The notes beneath the pieces are model-generated. The model ran no database searches and was not told where the DNA came from. It worked only from the letters and a program-made list of their open reading frames with translations. This document shows, piece after piece, positions 32,467-64,000 of a stretch of DNA of 64,000 nt. Location of the stretch: positions 33,364-97,363 of the forward strand of contig JBGPFC010000012.1 in NCBI GenBank assembly GCA_041483195.1, read 5' to 3'. Numbering within the stretch: the first letter of the stretch is position 1; each line of letters opens with the position of its first letter. Origin of the DNA: Candidatus Eiseniibacteriota bacterium. Lineage in GTDB: Bacteria > Eisenbacteria > RBG-16-71-46. The position numbers and the translations under genes are program-made.

Positions 32467-33905
32467 GTGGCCGTCCCCCCGACGATGATCTCGCGGAACC
32501 GAACGGTGGGCTGTCCGACGCCGACCGGCTTCCACTGGCCGTCCTTGCCGCAGCTGCCGGTGGTGCCGTCGATCTCGAGATCCCCGGCGACCGCGTCGAT
32601 CTTGAGCATCGCGTCGTTGCCGTTGCCGGTGAGCGTCGCGTTGCGCACCGGGACCGTCAGCGCGCCGTTCTCGATCTGCCACGCCTCGGTGACCTGGAAC
32701 GAGAAGTTGCCGTCGGCGGGATTCACAGAGCCGCCGCCCAGGCTCTTGCAGTAGAGCCCGCGCGTCACGTCGGCGATCAGCGCGGCGGGCGCGAGCGGCC
32801 CGGCCTCGATGTAGGTGTTGGTCATGCGGCACAGCGGAAAATCGCGGAACGAATTGCGGCGCCCGTTGCCGCTGGGCTCGTTGCCGGTGAGGCGCGCGTT
32901 CAGCAGGTCCCACATGTAACCGACCAGGATGCCGTCATCGACCAGCACCGTGCGCCGTGCCTGCGTGCCTTCGTCGTCCACGCGGAACGACCCGCGGCTG
33001 TAGGGCACGATGCCGCTGTCGACGATGGTCACGCCTTTCGCGGCCACCTGCTGGCCGAGCTGCGACGCGCGGATCGAAGTGTGCTTGCGGATGGTGTCGC
33101 CTTCCATGCTGTGCCCGAAGCACTCGTGCACCATGACCCCACCCCAGCCCGGCGAAACCACGACCGGATACGCGCCGGCCTCCGGCTCGCGGGCGCCGAG
33201 CAGCGTGATCGCCGACCCCGCAGCGTCGGCCGCGATCGCCTCGGGGGTGCGCACGGCGTCGAAGTAGCCCGCGTCGACCGAGCCGCCGCCGGCCGCGAAG
33301 CCCTGCTGCCGCTGGTCGCCATCGAGCGCGAGCGCCGTGACCGTGAGCCGCGACAGGTACTGGCGGTCGTCGGCCCACACGCCGTCGCTGTTCGCGACGA
33401 TGAACGACTTGGACGCGTCGGCGAGCGAGACCGTGACCTCGTGAATGCGGCCGTCGTGCGCGCGCGCGGTGTGGTTCGCCCGCTGGATCAGCGCGACCTT
33501 CGCCTGCTCGTCGAGCGCGATCGGCGCGGGGCGCTCGAGCGTGAACGGCGGCGGCGCCTGCACCACGCGAAACGCGATCGGCTTGCCGTTCCCCGCCGCG
33601 CCGCTCGCGATGCGCCCCGCGACCCGCGCGGCCTCGCGCAGGTCGTCCGGCGCGAATCCGTCGGCGTACGCGTAACCGGTCTGCTCGCCCGTGATCGCGC
33701 GCACCCCGACCCCTTGCGCGACGGAGTACGCCGTGGTCTTGAGCCGGTCCTCCTCGAGTGAGAAGGAGGTGTGCACCGTGTACTCGCCGTACACCTCCGC
33801 GAGCTCGGCGCCCTTTGAGCGCGCGAGCGTGAGCAGCTCGGCGACCAGCTCGCGGGAAAGCAGCGTGGCGAGATCGGGAGTTGCGCGCAGCGCGGTCGTG
33901 GTCAT
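32463..33905 (-). CDS. tldD: TldD metalloprotease
   Basis: HECFGHSMEGD, DDEG, GNGRR, RMTNTYI, CGKDGQ...VGQPT. Confidence 0.92.
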   Translation of the reverse strand: MTTTALRATPDLATLLSRELVAELLTLARSKGAELAEVYGEYTVHTSFSLEEDRLKTTAYSVAQGVGVRAITGEQTGYAYADGFAPDDLREAARVAGRIASGAAGNGKPIAFRVVQAPPPFTLERPAPIALDEQAKVALIQRANHTARAHDGRIHEVTVSLADASKSFIVANSDGVWADDRQYLSRLTVTALALDGDQRQQGFAAGGGSVDAGYFDAVRTPEAIAADAAGSAITLLGAREPEAGAYPVVVSPGWGGVMVHECFGHSMEGDTIRKHTSIRASQLGQQVAAKGVTIVDSGIVPYSRGSFRVDDEGTQARRTVLVDDGILVGYMWDLLNARLTGNEPSGNGRRNSFRDFPLCRMTNTYIEAGPLAPAALIADVTRGLYCKSLGGGSVNPADGNFSFQVTEAWQIENGALTVPVRNATLTGNGNDAMLKIDAVAGDLEIDGTTGSCGKDGQWKPVGVGQPTVRFREIIVGGTAT

Positions 33906-56397: not shown

Positions 56398-57603
56398 TCA
56401 GCTCAGCGCGACGCCGACTTCCTCCAGGCACTTCTCGATCAGCTCGAACGTGCGGTCGATGTCGTTGTCGAGCCCGACCGAGAATCGCACCAATCCTTCC
56501 GAGAGACCCATCGCGCGCCGCGCCTCGGGCGGAATCTCGGACGACGTGCTGTGGCCGGGGGCGCTGAAGAGCGTCTTGAAGTAGCCGAGGCTCACCGCGA
56601 GGTACCCAACCTTCGCCTCCTGCATGCGTTCCATCAGGCGGTTCGCGTTCTCGAGCGTGCCGGCGTCGAGCGTCATCATCCCGCCGTAGCCGTACCCCGG
56701 ATTCATGATGCGGGTCATCAGCACGTGCTGCGGATGGCTCGCGAGCCCGGGGTAGTGCACCTCGAGCCCGCGCTCGGCGAGCCGCAGCGCGAGGGCGTGC
56801 GCGTTCGCGCCGTGCTGGCGCATGCGAATGTGCAAGCTGTGCAGGTTCTTGAGGATGCTCGCCGCGCGAAAGCTGTCGAGCACCGGGCCCAGCAGCATGC
56901 TCGGGCCGCTGTTGATGTCGTTCAGCTTCGCGATGAAGTCGTGAGTCGAGACCACGCAGCCCGCCACGCAGTCGCTGGTGCCGTTGACGAACTTCGTCAT
57001 GCTGTGCACGACGACGTCCGCGCCCATGCGCAGCGGGGACAGCAGCATCGGGCTGAAGGTGTTGTCCACCACCATCGTCGCGCCGTGTTCGTGCGCGAGC
57101 GTCGCGAGCGCCGGCAGGTCGCTCACTTCGAGCATCGGATTGCTGATCGACTCGCAGAACAGCACGCGGGTGCGGGAGTTGAACGCCGCGCGCACCGCGG
57201 CCGGATCGGTGATGTCCACGAACCGCGTGGTGATCCCGAAGCGCGGCAGCAGGTTCTTGAGCAGGGCGTACGAGCCGCCGTAGATCGTCCGCCCCGAGAC
57301 GATCTCGTCGCCGGCCGAACACAACTGGAGCAGGGCGGTGGCGATCGCGGCCATTCCGGAGGCCATGACCTGCGCCGACTCGCCATCCTCCATGCGGGCC
57401 AGCGCGTCGGAGAGGAACTTGTTGGTCGGATTCCAGTGGCGCGAGTAGAGGAAGCAGCCCTCGATCTCGTGTGTGAAGGACTCCTGCATCCTCGCCGGGC
57501 TCAGGAAGGTGAAGGTGGACGAGTCGGTGATGGAGGGGTTGACGTCCCCGAATTCACCGAACACCAGGAAGTCCTGGAGGCGGGTCGCGGGATCGAAGCT
57601 CAT
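56398..57603 (-). CDS. PLP-dependent Cys/Met metabolism enzyme, probable methionine gamma-lyase
   Basis: FGEFGDVNPSI, YSRHWNPT, SGMAAI, VDNTF, HSMTKF (PLP Lys), VRFSVG; GGGGAGGAG RBS. Confidence 0.88.
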   Translation of the reverse strand: MSFDPATRLQDFLVFGEFGDVNPSITDSSTFTFLSPARMQESFTHEIEGCFLYSRHWNPTNKFLSDALARMEDGESAQVMASGMAAIATALLQLCSAGDEIVSGRTIYGGSYALLKNLLPRFGITTRFVDITDPAAVRAAFNSRTRVLFCESISNPMLEVSDLPALATLAHEHGATMVVDNTFSPMLLSPLRMGADVVVHSMTKFVNGTSDCVAGCVVSTHDFIAKLNDINSGPSMLLGPVLDSFRAASILKNLHSLHIRMRQHGANAHALALRLAERGLEVHYPGLASHPQHVLMTRIMNPGYGYGGMMTLDAGTLENANRLMERMQEAKVGYLAVSLGYFKTLFSAPGHSTSSEIPPEARRAMGLSEGLVRFSVGLDNDIDRTFELIEKCLEEVGVALS

Positions 57604-57725: not shown

Positions 57726-58397
57726 CTACTCGCCTTCGAGGTGCTTGAGCGCGGTCACCACGACGTTGTCGTAGTACACGGTGCACTGGCCGGCGCCGCC
57801 GGTGTATGCGGCGAGCGCGATGCGGCCGTTCGGGCGCAGGTTGCGGTTGTCGGTCTTGTCGAGCCGCAGCACGCCATCCACCCAGATGCGATAGCGGGAC
57901 CCGCGCGCCTCGATCCGCAGGTGGTGCCAGACTCCGTTGGCGTTTTCGACGTTCGCCCGTCCCATCGGCCACTCGCGGCGATTGAGGATCACGTCCTGAT
58001 ATCCCGGCCCGCGCAGATCCACCCCGATCCCGGTCTCGTCCTCGGCCCGCACGACGACGCCCTTGTCCACGCCGCGCATGCCGAGCACGTCGAGGTCCAC
58101 CGCGTAGTTGGTCCATGCCACCGAGCCGGCGTAAATGAAAGACCGCAGCTGGCGGCCGTCCGGCAGATCGGCGCGGAGCGCGCCCTGGCTCAGCGACCAC
58201 GCCCCGGGCTCGTCCGGGGACCAGTGCTTGAGCCCGTCGCTGAAGTCGTCGGAGAAGAGAACGCCGGTGCGGGGCACGGCAAACTTGGGCGCGGGAGGGA
58301 GGCGTGCTTCGCGCGTGGAGTCCACCACCGGTGCGGTCGCGATCAAGACCGCGGCCCCGAGCAACACGGGGCTCGCGCCGCGCAATATCCAATTCAC
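57726..58397 (-). CDS. Exported concanavalin-A-like / DUF1080-like domain protein
   Basis: LFSDDFSDG, WTNYAVDLD, WHHLRIEARGSRYRIWVDG, GRIAL, YYDNVVV; start uncertain. Confidence 0.7.
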   Translation of the reverse strand: MNWILRGASPVLLGAAVLIATAPVVDSTREARLPPAPKFAVPRTGVLFSDDFSDGLKHWSPDEPGAWSLSQGALRADLPDGRQLRSFIYAGSVAWTNYAVDLDVLGMRGVDKGVVVRAEDETGIGVDLRGPGYQDVILNRREWPMGRANVENANGVWHHLRIEARGSRYRIWVDGVLRLDKTDNRNLRPNGRIALAAYTGGAGQCTVYYDNVVVTALKHLEGE

Positions 58398-58705
58398 GTC
58401 CGCAATCCTCCCGACATTCGGGCGCTCTGTCCAGTCCGCCATTCGGGCCATCCCGCACGCGGGGGCACGTTCTGACGTTATCGGCCTCCCGCGCGCGGCG
58501 CTTCATGCCTCGTCCGCGGGCCAATGGCGCCCTCCGGGCCACGGGGGTCCGCCGGATGGGCCACGACCGGCGCCCGGGGGACCGGTAGCCTCATCCTGCT
58601 CATACATCCGGCTGATGCGACGCGGTCCCCGCGCGACGCAGGGCCGCGCGCGCGCCTGCGCCCATCGTGGTTCTCCTCACCTCCGGTCCCCCCGGACAGG
58701 GATTC

Positions 58706-58830
58706 ATGCCAGGCCGCACGATCGGTCGCTATCACATCGTCGCCCGTCTCGGCGAGGGCGGGATGGGCGCCGTTTGGAAGGTGGAGGACACGCTCCTCCG
58801 GCGCTTCGTCGCGCTCAAGATGCTCCCGCC
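58706..58830 (+). pseudogene. N-terminal fragment of a Hanks-type Ser/Thr protein kinase
   Basis: MPGRTIGRYHIVARLGEGGMGAVWKVEDTLLRRFVALKMLP (subdomains I-II); similarity ends there and the ORF runs into the convergent gene. Confidence 0.75.
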
Positions 58831-58943
58831 GCGGCGGCTCGAGGTGCTGGCCCCGGAGCAGCACGGCATCGCGGTGCGCAGCCCGGTGCCGCTCGAATCC
58901 GCGCGCGGCGGCCGGGCCTCGCCGCACTGGCGCGGGCCCCCAC

Positions 58944-60533
58944 TCAGAACCGGAAGCTCAACCGCACGTCTTCCTGCAGCGAGGTGTCGAGGTCGCCGAT
59001 GGTGCGTTCCATCGACCCGGTGAGGAACAGCCGCCGGCCGAGCGTGAGATCGAGGTCGAGGTCCTGCCAGCGCGCGTCGTCGGTCGCTCCGGTGGGGACG
59101 TTGGTCGTGGCGCGCATCCCGCCCCCCGCCTCGAGGTGCGCGAAGCTCGCAACGTCGAACCCGAGGCTCGCGGTGGCGAGCCGGGTATCCGCGACGTCGC
59201 CCCGCGACTGCGAGTAGCGCCCGCGCAGCCGCCCCTGGAGCGGCAGCACGCGCCACAGCTCGCCGCTCGCCGACCACGCATCGGTGCGCGCGCCGCCGCC
59301 CGACGAGGTTCGGATCTCGGCGCCAACGCGAACCGCGCGCGTCGGATCCACGCTGAAGCCGCCCCACGCGCCCTGCCGGTAGCGGTCGTCGAACTCGGTC
59401 TCGGGCGTGACACGGTCGCGGTAGAGACGCACGTTGCGGCGGTTGTCGTATCCGGCCTGAAGCGAGATCCAGGACCTCGCGTCGACGCGCGCGGTCACGA
59501 ACGAGCTGGTCGCCGAGAACAGCGGCTCGCCGGTCGCGCGCTTCCATCCGGTGTTGACGTCCAGCTCCTGGGCCGCCGACGCCGAGAGCGCACGGTCGCG
59601 ATAGAACCCCTGCGCGAAAGCGAACTGACGATTGACCTGGCCGTGCGAGGTCGAGAGCACCCCGCCGCTCGCGACCGTCCAGCGCCGCGCGGACTGCGCT
59701 GCCTGGCGCAGCTGGAGGAAGCCGCCGGACTCGATCACGTCGTGGCCGGGCGCGAGGCTCACCGGATCCGGCTCGGTGCCGCCGAACACGCCGAGGCTCA
59801 GTCGCCGGCCCGTCGCCTCGATCAGCGCTCCGTCGAACAGGCTCACGGACGAGAGCAATGGCGAACTCTGGCGTCCGAGCGTGAGCCGGCGGCGCCCGTC
59901 CGCGTCGTGCGTTGAAAACGCCAGGCGATAGGCGCGCGCGTTGCCGTCGGTCTGGGTGCCGGCGCCCGTGACCGCGCGCGAGGTGCGGCGCGCGCGCACG
60001 TCCGCGGCGAGATCGGTGCGCGAGCCGCCCACGTCCCTGCCCTCGAGCCACAGGTCGAACGCCGGCTGCGCGAGCCGGATGGCGTCGCTCTGCACGCCCA
60101 GCCAGTGAACGGCCACGCGGCCGCGCAGCGAGGCCGGGGCGCGCGGCCTCATGGGACCGGAGGCGAGCGCGGCGCCGGTGTCCGCCGCAGCGTCCGGTGC
60201 GGCCGCGATCGCGACCGCGTGCGGGACGAAGCGCACCAGGTCGCCGACCCGCGGCATCGACGACACCGTGAGCGTGTCGCACGCGGCGCGGTGCGTTGAG
60301 ATGAAGCTCACGCGCAGCCGCGCGATGGCTGCGCCACCGCGCACCACGTCGAGGCTGTCACCCGCCGCGAGCCCCTCGGCGCGGCCGGCCTCGACGTACA
60401 CCGATGGCCCCGCCAGGTATGTGACCCGCGCGGTGGAGAGCGCCGTCGCGCCGGCCGAAGCCGCGGCGCCCGCCATTACCGGCGAGGCGGCGGATGCCGC
60501 GACGATCGCGAGCAGCAGCGCGGCGAGCCTCAT
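58944..60533 (-). CDS. Large outer membrane beta-barrel protein, putative porin of a porin-cytochrome complex
   Basis: Signal peptide; N-terminal VYVEAGRAEGLAAGD domain; LTLGRQ, FDGA; many amphipathic strands; terminal Phe (VRLSFRF); ATGA overlap with the cytochrome. Confidence 0.75.
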   Translation of the reverse strand: MRLAALLLAIVAASAASPVMAGAAASAGATALSTARVTYLAGPSVYVEAGRAEGLAAGDSLDVVRGGAAIARLRVSFISTHRAACDTLTVSSMPRVGDLVRFVPHAVAIAAAPDAAADTGAALASGPMRPRAPASLRGRVAVHWLGVQSDAIRLAQPAFDLWLEGRDVGGSRTDLAADVRARRTSRAVTGAGTQTDGNARAYRLAFSTHDADGRRRLTLGRQSSPLLSSVSLFDGALIEATGRRLSLGVFGGTEPDPVSLAPGHDVIESGGFLQLRQAAQSARRWTVASGGVLSTSHGQVNRQFAFAQGFYRDRALSASAAQELDVNTGWKRATGEPLFSATSSFVTARVDARSWISLQAGYDNRRNVRLYRDRVTPETEFDDRYRQGAWGGFSVDPTRAVRVGAEIRTSSGGGARTDAWSASGELWRVLPLQGRLRGRYSQSRGDVADTRLATASLGFDVASFAHLEAGGGMRATTNVPTGATDDARWQDLDLDLTLGRRLFLTGSMERTIGDLDTSLQEDVRLSFRF

Positions 60534-62059
60534 CCGGCTCTCCCGCGCGGATGGCAGGAGTAGCAGGCCGGGCTCGAGTAGCTGTAGCCCGACACTCCGC
60601 TGTGGTGCCCGTCGGTGCCGGTCTTGTCGTCGTGCGGGTGGCATGTGAAGCACGTGAACACGGCGTAGCTGTTGGAACTGGTGTGGCACGTCGTGCACGC
60701 CGACCATGTTCCGTTATGCCTTCCCGAATAGATCGGGAAGTACGGGCCGTCGTGATCGAACGTGGCGCCGAGCCAGGTGGCGGTGCCGTGACAGCTCTCG
60801 CAGGTCGTCGGGAAGGTGGCCGCCGCGTGGCCGGGATTCGTGGTCCCGTTGTAGTCGGTCTGGTGACACGACACGCACGCCGTGTTCTTGCCGTGATAGA
60901 CGCCGTCGGCGTGACAACTCTGGCAGGCGAGCGCGACGTGCGCTCCGGTCAGCGGGAAGCTCGTGGCCGAGTGATTGAACAGCGCGCCGCCCCAGCTCGA
61001 CGTGGTGTGGCAGGTCGTGCAGGTGGTCGAGAATCCGGCCGGGCCGTGGGGTGGATCGTTGGTCTGATTGAAATCGGTCTGGTGGCACGAGATGCAGGCC
61101 GTGCTCTTCCCGTGGTACACGCCGTCCCCGTGGCAGCTCTGGCACGCGAGCGTGCGGTGCGCGCCGGTGAGCGGGAAGCTCGTGGCCGAATGATCGAACG
61201 ACGAGCTCTGCCAGTTCGTCGTGTTGTGGCAGTTCGCGCACGTCGTCGGGAACGCGGCCGCCGCATGGGGCGGATCGGTGGTGCCGTTGTAGTCGCCCTG
61301 GTGGCACGACACGCACGCCGTGTTCTTGCCGTGATAGACGTTGTCGCCGTGGCAGCTCTGGCACGCCGTGGTGCGGTGCGCGCCGGTGAGCGGGAACTGG
61401 GTGCGCGAGTGGTCGAAGCGCGCGCGGTTCCAGCCGATCGTGGAATGGCAGGTCTCGCACGCGAGCGGGTACTGGCCCGCCTCGTGATCGGGCGCGGTGG
61501 TGGCGCGATACTGCTCCATGTGGCAGCCGCTGCAATCCGCGCGGGTGCCCACGAACTGCAGGTGGCCCTGGGCCGCCCCCGGGTGGCAGCTCTCGCAATC
61601 GAGCGCGGCATGCGCGCCGCTCAACGGGAAGCGCGTGAGCTGGTGCGCACGCGCCATCGGCGCGCGGTCGATGAAGCTGCGCGCGTTGTGGCAGCGCGCG
61701 CAGTCGGTGCCCATCTCGCCGCGATGCACGTCCTCGTGACACGAGGCGCACTGCGTGCGGCCCTGCTTGAACTCGAGCGAGGTGTGGCAACCGAGGCACG
61801 AAGCAGAGGCGTGCGCGCCGTCGAGCTTGAAGCCGTACTTCGAATGGTCGAACTTCGCGGAGATCTTCGCCGGCTTCCAGGCCGCAGCGCCGTGGCACAG
61901 GGAGCAGTCATCCTTGAATGCCCCATGTGGATTGACGGTGGGCTCGCGCAGCGCGGCGCGCGACACCACGCCCAGCGCGGCGAGCGCCGGGATCGCGAGC
62001 AGCGCGAACAGGATTCGCATCGAGTGCGGCGCGGGCGGACGAGCCGGGAAGAGTCGCAT
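60530..62059 (-). CDS. Multiheme cytochrome c, 19 CxxCH motifs
   Basis: 19 CxxCH counted by hand; hydrophobic N-terminal signal; GAGGT RBS; alternative start 62020. Confidence 0.92.
   Translation of the reverse strand: MRLFPARPPAPHSMRILFALLAIPALAALGVVSRAALREPTVNPHGAFKDDCSLCHGAAAWKPAKISAKFDHSKYGFKLDGAHASASCLGCHTSLEFKQGRTQCASCHEDVHRGEMGTDCARCHNARSFIDRAPMARAHQLTRFPLSGAHAALDCESCHPGAAQGHLQFVGTRADCSGCHMEQYRATTAPDHEAGQYPLACETCHSTIGWNRARFDHSRTQFPLTGAHRTTACQSCHGDNVYHGKNTACVSCHQGDYNGTTDPPHAAAAFPTTCANCHNTTNWQSSSFDHSATSFPLTGAHRTLACQSCHGDGVYHGKSTACISCHQTDFNQTNDPPHGPAGFSTTCTTCHTTSSWGGALFNHSATSFPLTGAHVALACQSCHADGVYHGKNTACVSCHQTDYNGTTNPGHAAATFPTTCESCHGTATWLGATFDHDGPYFPIYSGRHNGTWSACTTCHTSSNSYAVFTCFTCHPHDDKTGTDGHHSGVSGYSYSSPACYSCHPRGRAG
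60760..61430 (-). repeat. Three ~222-bp tandem tri-heme coding modules
   Basis: F(D/N)HS...FPLTGAH...CQSCH..VYHGK.TAC.SCHQ.D.N.T..P.H...F.TTC..CH repeated three times (74 aa). Confidence 0.8.
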
Positions 62060-62067
62060 GATGGACC

Positions 62068-63885
62068 TCACGTGAGCCGGTGCGCGGCCAGCAGCGCCGG
62101 GAGTTGCGGTGGGAGCGTGTCGCGGAACGACTTGAGCGTGCCGGACGGCCGCGTGATGTGACAGCTCTCGCACTTCGCGGAGAGCGGGCGATAGCTCGTG
62201 CGCGCGCGACCGTTCGGGTCGCGGGTCGTGGCGTGGCAGCGGCCGCAGGCGGCACGGGCGTGCGCGCCTTCGAGGCGGAACGCGCTGTCGCGGTTGTGAT
62301 CGAAGCGCGCGGCGGGAGCGAACGCGTCCTGCGAATGGCAGCCGGCGCACGCGCCGTGATCGCGGCGGGCCGCGAACTGATCGCCGTGCGGGTTCTCGTG
62401 ACAGGTCTCGCAGCGCGCCTTCGGGATCGTGAGCGCGAGCGGCTTCACCGGCGCGGCGCCCGGCTTGAGCACGGGGTGACACGCGAAGCAGGGCGTGGCG
62501 CGATGCGCGCCCTCGAGCGGGAAGTCGTACTTCTGGTGAGCCGCGACATCGACAGCGCTCGGACGCCAGCCGGCCACCGCGTGACAGCTCTCGCACGCGC
62601 CGCGATCGGCCCGGCGCGTGAACTCGCCGCCGTGCGCGTCGGCGTGGCAGCTCGCGCAGCGCTCGTGACGCGGACGCAGCTGCACCCGCGCGGTGCCGAA
62701 GGCGGCGGCCGCGGCGCCGGGCGCGGCCTTCGGGTGGCACGATGCGCACGCCACCTGCTCGTGCTTCCCGCCGAGCGGATAGGCCGCGGCGCGATGCTGC
62801 TCGACGGTGTAGGTGGACGGCGTCCATCCCGCGACCGCGTGACACGCCGCGCAGTCGGCAGGCTTGCCCGCCAGCGTCGCGAGCCCGCCGTGAGCGTCGG
62901 CGTGGCAGTTCGTGCACGCCGCGAACTTGGGATCCTTGCCCCACGCCTTCACCGGATCGTGGCAGGTCGCGCACGCGAGCGCCGCATGTTTCCCCCGCAG
63001 CGGATAGCGCGTGCGCTCGTGGTCGAAGGTCTGCTCGTTCACCCGCTGCCAGCTCTCGGTGGTGTGGCACTTCGCGCAGGCCGCGCCGAAGCGCGTGGCG
63101 TGCGGATCGCGATGGCAGCTGCTGCACTCGCCGTGAGGCACCGGCTTGAAGAGCGCGAGCGGCTGGCCGGCCGCATCGTGCGCGAGCGGGAGCGTGGCTG
63201 CGAGATGGCACTTCTCGCACGCCACCGCCGCGTGCTTGCCGGTGAGCGGGTAGTCGCTCTTCGCGTGATCGAAGCCCGGCGCCGGCTTCCACCCCCTGGT
63301 GTCGTGGCAGCGCATGCAATTCGTGTCGAGCGCGCCGCGGTGCACGTCCTCGTGGCAGGACTTGCACGCGCTCTCGAGCCCGATCCAGCTGTTGGCGGGA
63401 CGCGCGCGCTTCATGAGCGCGGCGGCGGGTCCGTGCTGGAATGCCGGCTTGTGGCACGCGCGGCACTCGGTCGTCGCGTGCTTGCCTTCGAGCGCCCAGC
63501 CCGCGCGGCGGTGATCGAATCGCTCGGCGGCGCCTTCATCCCAGTGAACCAGGTCGAAGTCGAGGCCGGCGTGCTCGGGATGGCAGGAGGCGCACTCCTG
63601 CTTCGCGACGCGCGGGTGAAGCCCGCGGTCGTCCTGGATCAGACGCGCCATCTCGGTGTGACAGGCCAGGCACTTGTCACGCATCGGGACCCCCTTCGCG
63701 TGACACTCGAGACAGTGCAGCGAGCCCTCGAGCTTCGTGTGCGCGCGCGACAGCGCTCCCGGCGAAACCTGCGCAGCGGCCGGCCGCGCGCCCGTCGCGC
63801 ATGCCGCCGCCACGATGGCCGCGGCCGCGAGAACGCGCGTGAACGTGCGAGCCCATGGCCTAGGAGCCTGTCCGAGGATTCGCAA
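62068..63885 (-). CDS. Multiheme cytochrome c, 20 CxxCH motifs
   Basis: 20 CxxCH counted by hand; signal ending AAA-QVSPG; FDH...(Y/F)PLxGxH repeats; TTG start uncertain. Confidence 0.92.
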   Translation of the reverse strand: MRILGQAPRPWARTFTRVLAAAAIVAAACATGARPAAAQVSPGALSRAHTKLEGSLHCLECHAKGVPMRDKCLACHTEMARLIQDDRGLHPRVAKQECASCHPEHAGLDFDLVHWDEGAAERFDHRRAGWALEGKHATTECRACHKPAFQHGPAAALMKRARPANSWIGLESACKSCHEDVHRGALDTNCMRCHDTRGWKPAPGFDHAKSDYPLTGKHAAVACEKCHLAATLPLAHDAAGQPLALFKPVPHGECSSCHRDPHATRFGAACAKCHTTESWQRVNEQTFDHERTRYPLRGKHAALACATCHDPVKAWGKDPKFAACTNCHADAHGGLATLAGKPADCAACHAVAGWTPSTYTVEQHRAAAYPLGGKHEQVACASCHPKAAPGAAAAAFGTARVQLRPRHERCASCHADAHGGEFTRRADRGACESCHAVAGWRPSAVDVAAHQKYDFPLEGAHRATPCFACHPVLKPGAAPVKPLALTIPKARCETCHENPHGDQFAARRDHGACAGCHSQDAFAPAARFDHNRDSAFRLEGAHARAACGRCHATTRDPNGRARTSYRPLSAKCESCHITRPSGTLKSFRDTLPPQLPALLAAHRLT

Positions 63886-64000
63886 CGTCGGCGCGCATGA
63901 TCCGAGATCCTGGGTGGTGCGCGTCGATCGTCGTTTCGGCCGGCCTGCGAAGGGATCCGCGACGCCCTCGGCGGCGGTCGACCTCGCCCCGGGCCACGGG

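Follow-up and report, generated by a model that had tools for sequence, protein, structure and literature searches.

A predicted PCC3-like electron conduit with an added flavoprotein gene in Candidatus Eiseniibacteriota and other phyla, apparently split here by an insertion sequence

Among the porin-cytochrome conduits proposed for extracellular electron transfer (EET), PCC3 was defined by He et al. (2017, PMC5566968) through four parts: a porin, an inner-membrane protein and two multihaem cytochromes, one extracellular (median of 34 haems) and one periplasmic (median of 21). The inner-membrane protein has ~300 amino acids and five helices and carries two W-x3-H-x13-H motifs, on helices 3 and 5, together with SGxxG on helix 4, and the cytochromes, which are rich in repeats and in small residues, have 22-39 residues per haem (PMC5566968). 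The periplasmic subunit is described with 21, 24 or 27 haems and the outer one with 10-35 (Hoover et al. 2023, PMC9900912), and Slit_0867-0870 and Slit_1446-1449 are listed as PCC3 clusters (Zhou et al., PMC8788666). PCC3 is itself a prediction, with Sideroxydans lithotrophicus ES-1, Leptothrix and other Proteobacteria as hosts. We have analysed a stretch of 64,000 nucleotides (the window) from Candidatus Eiseniibacteriota bacterium, assembly GCA_041483195.1, which covers positions 33,364 to 97,363 of contig JBGPFC010000012.1 (C12). The end of the window is also the end of the contig, and close to it, at window positions 58944-63885, lie three genes, A, B and C, for two multihaem cytochromes and a putative outer-membrane barrel. 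Compared by architecture and published description, their closest known counterpart appears to be PCC3. In a five-gene cassette with the order UP1-OX-A-B-C, the trio makes up the distal part; UP1 encodes an inner-membrane protein and OX a predicted flavoprotein. We consider it somewhat likely that the five proteins conduct electrons from the cytoplasm to the surface of the cell and that the trio supplies those parts of this path that lie in the periplasm and the outer membrane; for all five members the function is predicted from sequence and models.

As listed among the open reading frames (ORFs) of the window, A, B and C all lie on the minus strand and point in the same direction. Gene A as called (62068-63885, -) encodes 605 amino acids with 20 CxxCH motifs from a TTG start; its native part (62068-63859, -), with the 20 CxxCH, is likely a wire of constant length that spans the periplasm. 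Gene B (60530-62059, -, with an alternative ATG at 62020) encodes a 509-residue cytochrome with 19 CxxCH, likely the outer wire of variable length. The TGA stop of A (62068-62070) is followed 8 nt later by the ATG of B at 62059, and the ATGA at 60530-60533 is common to the stop of B and the start of C. A sequence-only reading of this DNA had reported two signal-bearing cytochromes of 20 and 19 haem motifs, joined by an 8-nt gap and followed by an ATGA overlap. Gap, overlap and counts are borne out, and signal-peptide-like N termini are seen in A, B and C by eye, judged without a predictor; the 5′ end of A had to be corrected, as the called start lies in insertion-sequence DNA.

Both proteins are made up of units of the cytochrome c7/c3 type. 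Pfam-A searches with hmmscan assign Cytochrome_C7 to A (2e-22, in 6 stretches) and to B (1.1e-19, together with Cytochrom_c3_2), and a search of the trio for the variant motifs CxxxCH, CxxxxCH and CxxCK returned none. A has 30.2 amino acids per haem and 48 His for 20 haems, B 26.8 amino acids per haem and 45 His for 19 haems, so that both contain enough His for bis-His ligation at every haem. Residues 195-413 of B (60821-61477, -) are built of three tandem trihaem repeats of 73 residues each, with a CxxCH spacing of 32-16-25. B also passes the Pfam model Mtrc-MtrF_II-IV_dom (7.5e-10, 39 bits, cut-off 30). Against the NCBIfam model TIGR03507 of the OmcA/MtrC family (cut-off 209.3 bits), A and B reach only 31.1 and 17.4 bits, and against TIGR03508, the DmsE/MtrA decahaem family (cut-off 192.2), B reaches 30.4 bits. 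The trio had been called a non-Mtr wire, and by family profiles this holds: it falls short of MtrB_PioB, TIGR03507 and TIGR03508, and the domain II/IV model of MtrC/MtrF is the only Mtr family model passed, by B.

The suspicion that the operon extends beyond the window proved correct, as it continues upstream with a flavoprotein and a b-type membrane protein, in this genome on contig C60 behind an insertion sequence. In relatives, a gene overlaps the start of A, and OX (C60:234-1646, -) shares 59-60% identity with it. The OX product combines an N-terminal hydrophobic helix, an Arg-rich stretch, a zinc-ribbon-like match, a 4Fe-4S dicluster and an FAD-NAD(P) domain, with matches to Pyr_redox_3 (6e-43) and to a YpdA-like model (1.9e-50, below that model's cut-off). 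OX is thus predicted to be a membrane-anchored 2x[4Fe-4S]/FAD oxidoreductase of the NAD(P)H type. UP1 (C60:1646-2506) lies upstream of OX and encodes an inner-membrane protein, a candidate of the di-haem b type, from a family of ~280-340 amino acids. In 39 sequences W72-x3-H76-x13-H90, S112-G113-x2-G116 and W245-x3-H249-x13-H263 are invariant. The structural model (mean predicted local distance difference test score, pLDDT, of 89.4) consists of five membrane helices with these motifs on helices 3, 4 and 5, and a conserved helical insert of ~100 residues separates helices 4 and 5. The placement of Arg and Lys suggests that this insert and the bulk of OX are cytoplasmic, and that H76 and H249 are near the cytoplasmic face of the membrane and H90 and H263 near the periplasmic face. 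Such a layout would be the geometry of a two-haem transmembrane relay.

The five genes recur together far beyond the window. UP1 loci were found 244 times in species-representative genomes, and the tallies over 80 loci given here refer to the best 80 of these 244, which are labelled Eisenbacteria, Gemmatimonadota, Acidobacteriota and a few others. OX stands directly downstream of UP1 in 63 of the 80, elsewhere in the locus in 15, and was not seen in 2; the two frames often overlap or nearly abut. C lies downstream on the same strand in 54 loci and the full five-gene order is present in 44; by reading of the coordinates, untallied, most of the 26 loci that lack C appear to be truncated where a contig stops. 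Loci collected around C homologs gave the same picture: all 12 relatives' loci place C beside multihaem cytochromes, 9 of these 12 have the order OX-A-B-C, and UP1 is directly upstream of OX in 9/9 Eisenbacteria loci of relatives. Synteny with cytochromes, on which the conduit proposal had been made to depend, is therefore seen in 12/12 relatives' loci and in the 54 further ones.

The haem counts at the two cytochrome positions behave differently. Of the 54 loci, 27 have a first cytochrome (the one after OX) with 20 haems, 26 have one with 23 and one locus has a count of 62; in the B orthologs the number ranges over 10-55 and equals 1 modulo 3 in 47 of 52 cases. As A-type counts are constant and B-type counts follow 3n+1, the first wire would have a fixed length and the second would vary by trihaem units. 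Together the two cytochromes hold ~40 c haems here and up to ~80 in relatives. The single frame of 62 CxxCH (L079, 12484-13548 onward, Acidobacteriota) occupies the position of A and may be an A-B fusion or an artefact of assembly or frame calling.

The third gene of the trio, C (58944-60533, -), encodes a predicted outer-membrane protein of 529 amino acids with a signal peptide and no CxxCH, which ends in LSFRF; a barrel of ~530 residues with a terminal Phe had been reported from the sequence. An AlphaFold2 model calculated on 54 homologs (mean pLDDT 85.3) comprises a small N-terminal β-domain (residues 33-102; 60228-60437, -; pLDDT block means of 87-94), a linker of low confidence that is disordered in the model (residues 110-131, pLDDT 37) and a barrel domain (residues 136-528; 58950-60128, -) with 22 β-strands as assigned by DSSP. 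The conduit proposal was to fall if the barrel were too narrow or no barrel at all; in the model it is a barrel, and with 22 strands a wide one. Y39, Y46, G50, G58, D59 and D98 are invariant in the 54 sequences. At E-values up to 0.1, Pfam-A returned only a chance zinc-finger match for C, the Pfam profiles MtrB_PioB, Plug and TonB-receptor gave no match, and NCBIfam gave nothing. The 304 detected homologs are all unnamed or hypothetical proteins, their named hosts being Candidatus Eisenbacteria, in line with the lineage guessed from the sequence; matches in the ESM Atlas, for C as for UP1, are unnamed clusters only. The window's genome has no second C homolog.

Structural comparison alone could place C among ordinary transporters. 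In an all-against-all comparison its top neighbours are the 22-strand barrels of TonB-dependent and SusC proteins (Cir, FyuA, BtuB and SusC, with Z-scores of 15.8-16.7), whereas MtrB (6r2q_B) ranks only 40th (Z 12.7, root-mean-square deviation 7.8 over 335 aligned residues), below many unrelated barrels of 18-24 strands. A Foldseek search of the model against the PDB yielded generic barrels (PapC usher, Occ porins) at template-modelling scores of 0.3-0.45, and these were discarded. C might then be a solute channel or TonB-type importer that is adjacent to the cytochromes by accident, with the cytochromes confined to the periplasm as an electron store or as part of a reductase chain. We regard this as very improbable: C has neither a Plug nor a TonB-receptor match and its N-terminal domain comprises only ~70 residues, its gene start overlaps the stop of B, and it follows the cytochromes in the loci counted above, across phyla, and on an Emticicia plasmid. 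Co-folding of C (30-529) with B (40-509) also argues against it, as an interaction prediction score from aligned errors (ipSAE) of 0.56 was obtained as the median of three runs, compared with 0.00 for the best of three controls. At least 66% of contacts recur between the runs, and partner pLDDT is no lower than 75. This is a weak pass: the pass mark is reached by 116 of 157 solved complexes and by 2 of 215 mismatched pairs, and scores of up to 0.60 come from only 18 of the 157 solved complexes plus both passing mismatches; no interface is reported. An association of B with C is weakly suggested by these models. For the threading of the barrel by a cytochrome, which the sequence-only reading had put forward as a point to check, the co-fold gives this weak pass and no more.

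On the basis of these features, we propose the following path. OX, whose single N-terminal helix anchors it to the membrane while most of the protein lies in the cytoplasm, would oxidize NAD(P)H and relay the electrons over FAD and two [4Fe-4S] clusters to UP1. There, two b haems, one near either membrane face, would be ligated by the two bis-His pairs, and the electrons would cross the inner membrane on these haems. A, with its constant 20 or 23 haems, would span the periplasm, and B, with 3n+1 haems and a trihaem repeat of variable copy number, would lead through the barrel C, or sit on it, and reach an extracellular acceptor such as a metal oxide, a humic substance or a partner cell. Since the path would pump nothing and an outward flow of electrons is electrogenic, we read it as an outlet that may regenerate NAD(P)+, not as an energy-conserving respiratory chain. 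The most specific form of this proposal is a quinone-independent circuit that resembles NOX, runs from NAD(P)H over an Fe-S flavoprotein, two b haems, ~40 c haems and a 22-strand barrel to the outside, evolves at its outer wire by trihaem units, moves between phyla and in one cultured bacterium is borne on a plasmid; we advance it tentatively and hold it to be possible, not probable.

Several observations weigh against this proposal. UP1 has no significant Pfam match at E-values up to 10, the best being Ferric_reduct with E 1.9 and 9 bits (cut-off 28). Its closest folds, the di-haem bundles of the designed protein 4D2, CybB, cytochrome b561 and FdnI (Z 7.2-8.9), lie in the noise range of helical bundles; because these matches are weak, the fold assignment of UP1 rests on the motifs. 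In 15 of the 80 loci OX is displaced from UP1, several times as a more divergent copy (38-47% identity) that lies upstream or on the other strand, and in 2 it is not seen. For B, no lipobox is visible by eye, and neither a lipoprotein signal nor an export route was identified; among 24 ortholog N termini, 23 have no lipobox by eye and one (L029) has a Cys in the signal region. Which cytochrome enters the barrel is likewise debatable. A is placed in the periplasm and B outside because the A count is constant and the B count variable, an order that matches PCC3, and B as the outer wire also fits the translational coupling of B and C and the weak co-fold. Two loci (L028 and L045) that possess A and C without B are taken as a further point for this placement. 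They also cut the other way: with some second copies (L021-L023) that consist of a B-like cytochrome and C only, they leave room for either cytochrome at the barrel.

The position of OX also bears on the source of the electrons. UP1 might give electrons to the quinone pool or take them from it as part of a PCC3-type conduit, possibly with an inward wire that oxidizes extracellular Fe(II) or Mn(II) or draws on a cathode. OX, no longer the direct feeder, would then have an accessory part, for instance as an NAD(P)H:quinone reductase or as a reductase with a repair function. This version is favoured by the loci with OX apart from UP1. The weak fold matches of UP1 include CybB and FdnI of E. coli, which we take to be quinone-reactive b-type proteins with two haems, and these speak for it as well. 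In its parts, the order of their genes and the motifs the cassette furthermore matches PCC3, which as described in the proteobacterial systems has no flavoprotein, and a link to the quinone pool was proposed for the inner-membrane protein of PCC3 and PCC4 (PMC5566968); a literature search for a link between PCC3 and a flavoprotein found none. Both PCC3 clusters of Sideroxydans ES-1 are down-regulated on Fe(II) (PMC8788666), a further difficulty for the electron outlet proposed above. Conversely, OX follows UP1 directly in 63/80 loci across phyla and in all nine Eisenbacteria loci, it has a membrane anchor of its own, and the cytoplasmic insert of UP1 could serve as its docking surface. No quinone-site motif was identified, though none was searched for. 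Taken together, we consider the quinone-linked version unlikely, while still deserving attention, and continue to favour an OX-fed path.

In the window's own genome, the cassette appears to be interrupted. The last 141 bases (63860-64000) are the right end of a multi-copy insertion sequence, a repeat at the contig end that recurs with 99-100% identity at nine other contig ends. A 17-nt core of the repeat has 19 copies in the genome, each within ~215 nt of a contig end, ten of them in right-type ends (the window's included) and nine in left-type ends (that of C60 included). The left-type end, present at nine contig ends including the start of C60, carries the N terminus of a transposase-like frame. 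The right end bears a 23-bp terminal inverted repeat (63860-63882) that matches the 23 bp of the left end with one mismatch, and CTAG flanks every end of the element. The element accounts for 19 contig ends of the 93-contig assembly and has ~10 copies both by count and by depth; besides C12, it stands at ends of C3, C4, C5, C7, C13, C14, C18 (both), C21, C23, C27, C36, C46, C51, C60, C64, C79 and C80. The interior of the element is not assembled in this genome, its 47-residue transposase N terminus has no Pfam match and no plasmid match, and 20 relatives contain nothing of the element beyond short chance matches.

The TTG that had been called as the start of A (63883-63885, -) belongs to the element, as do the first 8-9 codons of A as called, and native coding sequence ends at ~63859. 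On C60, the element abuts the stop codon of OX in the same orientation. We infer that it inserted at a CTAG in the junction of the OX stop and the A start; the native start of A would be a TTG just upstream of this CTAG, in frame and eight bases before the OX stop, an overlap that resembles the 4-nt overlap in the relative G016. In four public metagenome runs from sediment, contig depth increases about ten times at 63852-63935. Contigs of these runs that cover 61500-63889, 61956-63889 and 62225-63889 extend from gene A into 30 nt of the element without a difference; a repeat would be expected to leave just such a k-1 overhang, which is one letter below our 31-letter rule for bridging. Contigs of three public runs join the C60 flank, on the OX side, to the left end of the element. 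The physical order C60-element-C12 is thus deduced from synteny and complementary flanks.

In this genome A, B and C would accordingly be intact but cut off from their native start codon and, judging by the operon layout of relatives, from their promoter, and the insertion may silence them. It is quite conceivable, at a little less than an even chance, that the trio is a silent, decaying remnant. The element apparently sits at the OX-stop/A-start junction, and the sole in-frame start upstream of the A signal peptide is the TTG that the element supplies, for which no ribosome-binding site is obvious by eye. Among the contig rows listed from the four public runs only the inserted form appears, with no uninserted OX-A junction. 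Moreover, none of three same-genus relatives (completeness of 80-93%) has a C homolog, although one occurs in 24 of 61 related genomes, the window's genome included. On the other hand, A, B and C have neither frameshift nor premature stop, their lengths are full and their haem counts of 20 and 19 are like those of orthologs. The copies of the element are 99-100% identical, so the insertion is probably recent and the intact genes say little either way. The transposase frame runs in the same direction as the operon, so that read-through is possible; RNA data are absent from the 23 public runs listed. Whatever its effect, the insertion reveals the cassette as exposed to active mobile elements and explains its appearance in pieces in draft assemblies.

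A copy of the cassette exists in culture. Plasmid pEMTOL02 of Emticicia oligotrophica DSM 17448 (NC_018749.1, 8845-21429) carries the same five genes, with cytochromes of 23 and 40 haems and a 538-residue C-like protein (21% identity, E 7e-10), directly behind a fused gene for CcsA-type cytochrome c biogenesis, whose product has 1028 residues. The cassette is followed there by a gene for a GW-dipeptide-domain protein, and on the opposite strand nearby are genes for a DUF5777 barrel, a Rieske protein and a c-type cytochrome. UP1 matches comprise at least 1767 clusters at 90% identity; a profile search of 1.84 billion representatives returned 2909 representatives at the 50% identity level (E up to 0.001), and 72 of the 205 genomes of one class sample contain UP1. 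The locus had been presented as an oddity of its lineage, and in this respect the sequence-only reading did not survive: the cassette is present in three or more phyla as well as on the Emticicia plasmid, and its architecture matches the already proposed PCC3 (PMC5566968). The conduit interpretation itself gains from structure prediction and from very consistent synteny, and only its novelty for the lineage is lost. Literature searches gave no link between Emticicia and multihaem cytochromes; for Eisenbacteria, the passages covered hold only FeGenie or Cyc2 mentions and no description of the cassette, and judged by titles and the beginnings of abstracts, none of the papers on multihaem EET porins of Gemmatimonadota appeared to describe it.

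Variant arrangements were also observed. In a subset of Gemmatimonadota and Acidobacteriota loci (L059, L064, L066, L069, L074, L080, L085, L087, L093, L101, L102 and L105), UP1 is followed directly by a 23-haem cytochrome, and a divergent OX-like gene (38-47% identity) lies upstream, in several of them on the opposite strand; L064, L066, L093 and L101 have further frames of 8, 18 and 16 haems upstream, and L069 one of 16 haems. Two loci, L035 and L073, come from metagenome-assembled genomes labelled Hyphomicrobiales and Bacteroidota within one class sample that contains many cassette genomes. These labels probably do not give the true placement, and no spread to those groups can be counted from them. 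A distant UP1 relative (24% identity, E 3e-4) is encoded on a plasmid of Legionella sp. MW5194 (NZ_CP045733.1, 9926-12570), directly after a gene for a 627-residue 2Fe-2S protein and an operon for an F-type ATPase; c-type cytochromes are absent from the vicinity. The locus is a hint that, in other settings too, members of the UP1 family have cytoplasmic Fe-S redox proteins as partners.

The genome is equipped for the assembly of c-type cytochromes, as the conduit proposal had required: it contains the System I maturation genes CcmC/F-type (PF01578, three) and CcmE (one), and no ResB was found in it. There are 17 ORFs with at least four CxxCH, one of which has 42. The latter (C11:2367-6194, -) lies beside frames of 9 and 6 haems and on the same contig as a CcmF-like gene (C11:13446-14048), and a cluster at C19:10981-32115 comprises frames with 19, 18, 14, 10, 9, 9 and 5 CxxCH. 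Next to the trio, a 118-codon frame (58667-59023, +) overlaps the 3′ end of C by 80 nt. It begins in a manner that we take to resemble the glycine loop and VAxK region of a Ser/Thr protein kinase, a likeness that is then lost, and Pfam detects no kinase or other domain; the frame may be the remnant of a gene truncated when the cassette arrived. Further downstream, 56398-57591 (-) encodes a pyridoxal-phosphate-dependent enzyme of Cys/Met metabolism (2e-96) and 57726-58451 (-) a protein with a 3-keto-disaccharide hydrolase domain (3e-10), neither with a redox link.

Should the proposed path operate, many uncultured bacteria of soil, sediment and sludge could dump reducing power on minerals, humics or partner cells and thereby bypass the quinone pool, and the modelling of carbon and metal cycling in poorly known phyla would change. 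A compact and self-contained five-gene wire would join the few known envelope conduits (Mtr, Pcc and Cyc2), and a design fed by a flavoprotein and possibly independent of quinones would come as a surprise if shown. The 3n+1 series of haem counts offers a natural experiment on wire length, and the pEMTOL02 copy in a cultured, non-pathogenic organism makes the PCC3-type prediction testable.

Compared with established conduits, the cassette shares individual principles with each. The Geobacter OmbB-OmaB-OmcB and Ext clusters likewise combine a porin with periplasm-facing and outward-facing multihaem cytochromes in one cluster; they contain no inner-membrane or cytoplasmic module, and their cytochromes are much smaller, with 8 and 12 haems, of which the outer one is a lipoprotein. 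In MtrCAB of Shewanella (6R2Q) and in MtoAB and PioAB, a multihaem cytochrome gene lies directly upstream of the gene for the outer-membrane barrel, as in the cassette. The match of B to the MtrC/MtrF domain II/IV model (7.5e-10) and the expected principle of haems insulated by a barrel are further likenesses. In contrast, C has no Pfam MtrB_PioB match, is modelled with 22 strands where the MtrB barrel has 26, and finds MtrB only at structural rank 40. A and B fall far below the cut-offs of DmsE/MtrA and OmcA/MtrC and carry 19-20 haems instead of 10, and the cassette encodes no quinol dehydrogenase of the CymA type.

The inner part of the cassette is reminiscent of NOX/FRE and MsrQ-type proteins, which have two bis-His pairs, 13 residues apart, on two membrane helices, as do H76/H90 and H249/H263 of UP1. 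The ferric-reductase-like His pairs of the PCC3 and PCC4 protein were pointed out by He et al. (PMC5566968). A cytoplasmic NAD(P)H flavoprotein as partner, predicted for OX, and the logic of exporting electrons from cytoplasmic nicotinamide are common to both. The two differ in that UP1 and OX are separate polypeptides and UP1 is not recognized by Pfam Ferric_reduct. The flavin module of NOX is of the ferredoxin-reductase type, whereas OX is thioredoxin-reductase/YpdA-like with two [4Fe-4S] clusters and lacks such a module. The acceptor would be a haem wire in the cassette, while NOX/FRE reduce O2 or Fe(III) chelates.

The agreement with PCC3 is the broadest. Both consist of an inner-membrane protein of ~300 amino acids, a periplasmic cytochrome of ~21 haems, a variable outer cytochrome and a porin, and UP1, A, B and C appear in the same relative gene order as in Slit_0867-0870 (PMC8788666). 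Five helices, two W-x3-H-x13-H motifs and SGxxG are shared, all invariant in UP1. The periplasmic haem counts advance in steps of three (21, 24 and 27 in PCC3; 20 and 23 in the cassette), the number of residues per haem is low (22-39 and 27-30, respectively), and the outer cytochrome is built of repeats and rich in Thr, Ser, Ala and Gly. The cassette differs by the gene for a membrane-anchored Fe-S flavoprotein between those for the inner-membrane protein and the first cytochrome, apparently by a barrel of 22 modelled strands compared with up to 42 transmembrane regions given for PCC3 porins by two-dimensional prediction, and by its hosts, which are Eisenbacteria, Gemmatimonadota, Acidobacteriota and Bacteroidota, while PCC3 was described from Proteobacteria. 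At the level of architecture, the cassette thus agrees with PCC3 in every feature that can be tested. These comparisons suggest that it is of the predicted PCC3-like kind, set apart by its flavoprotein, its occurrence in other phyla and perhaps also its modelled 22-strand barrel.

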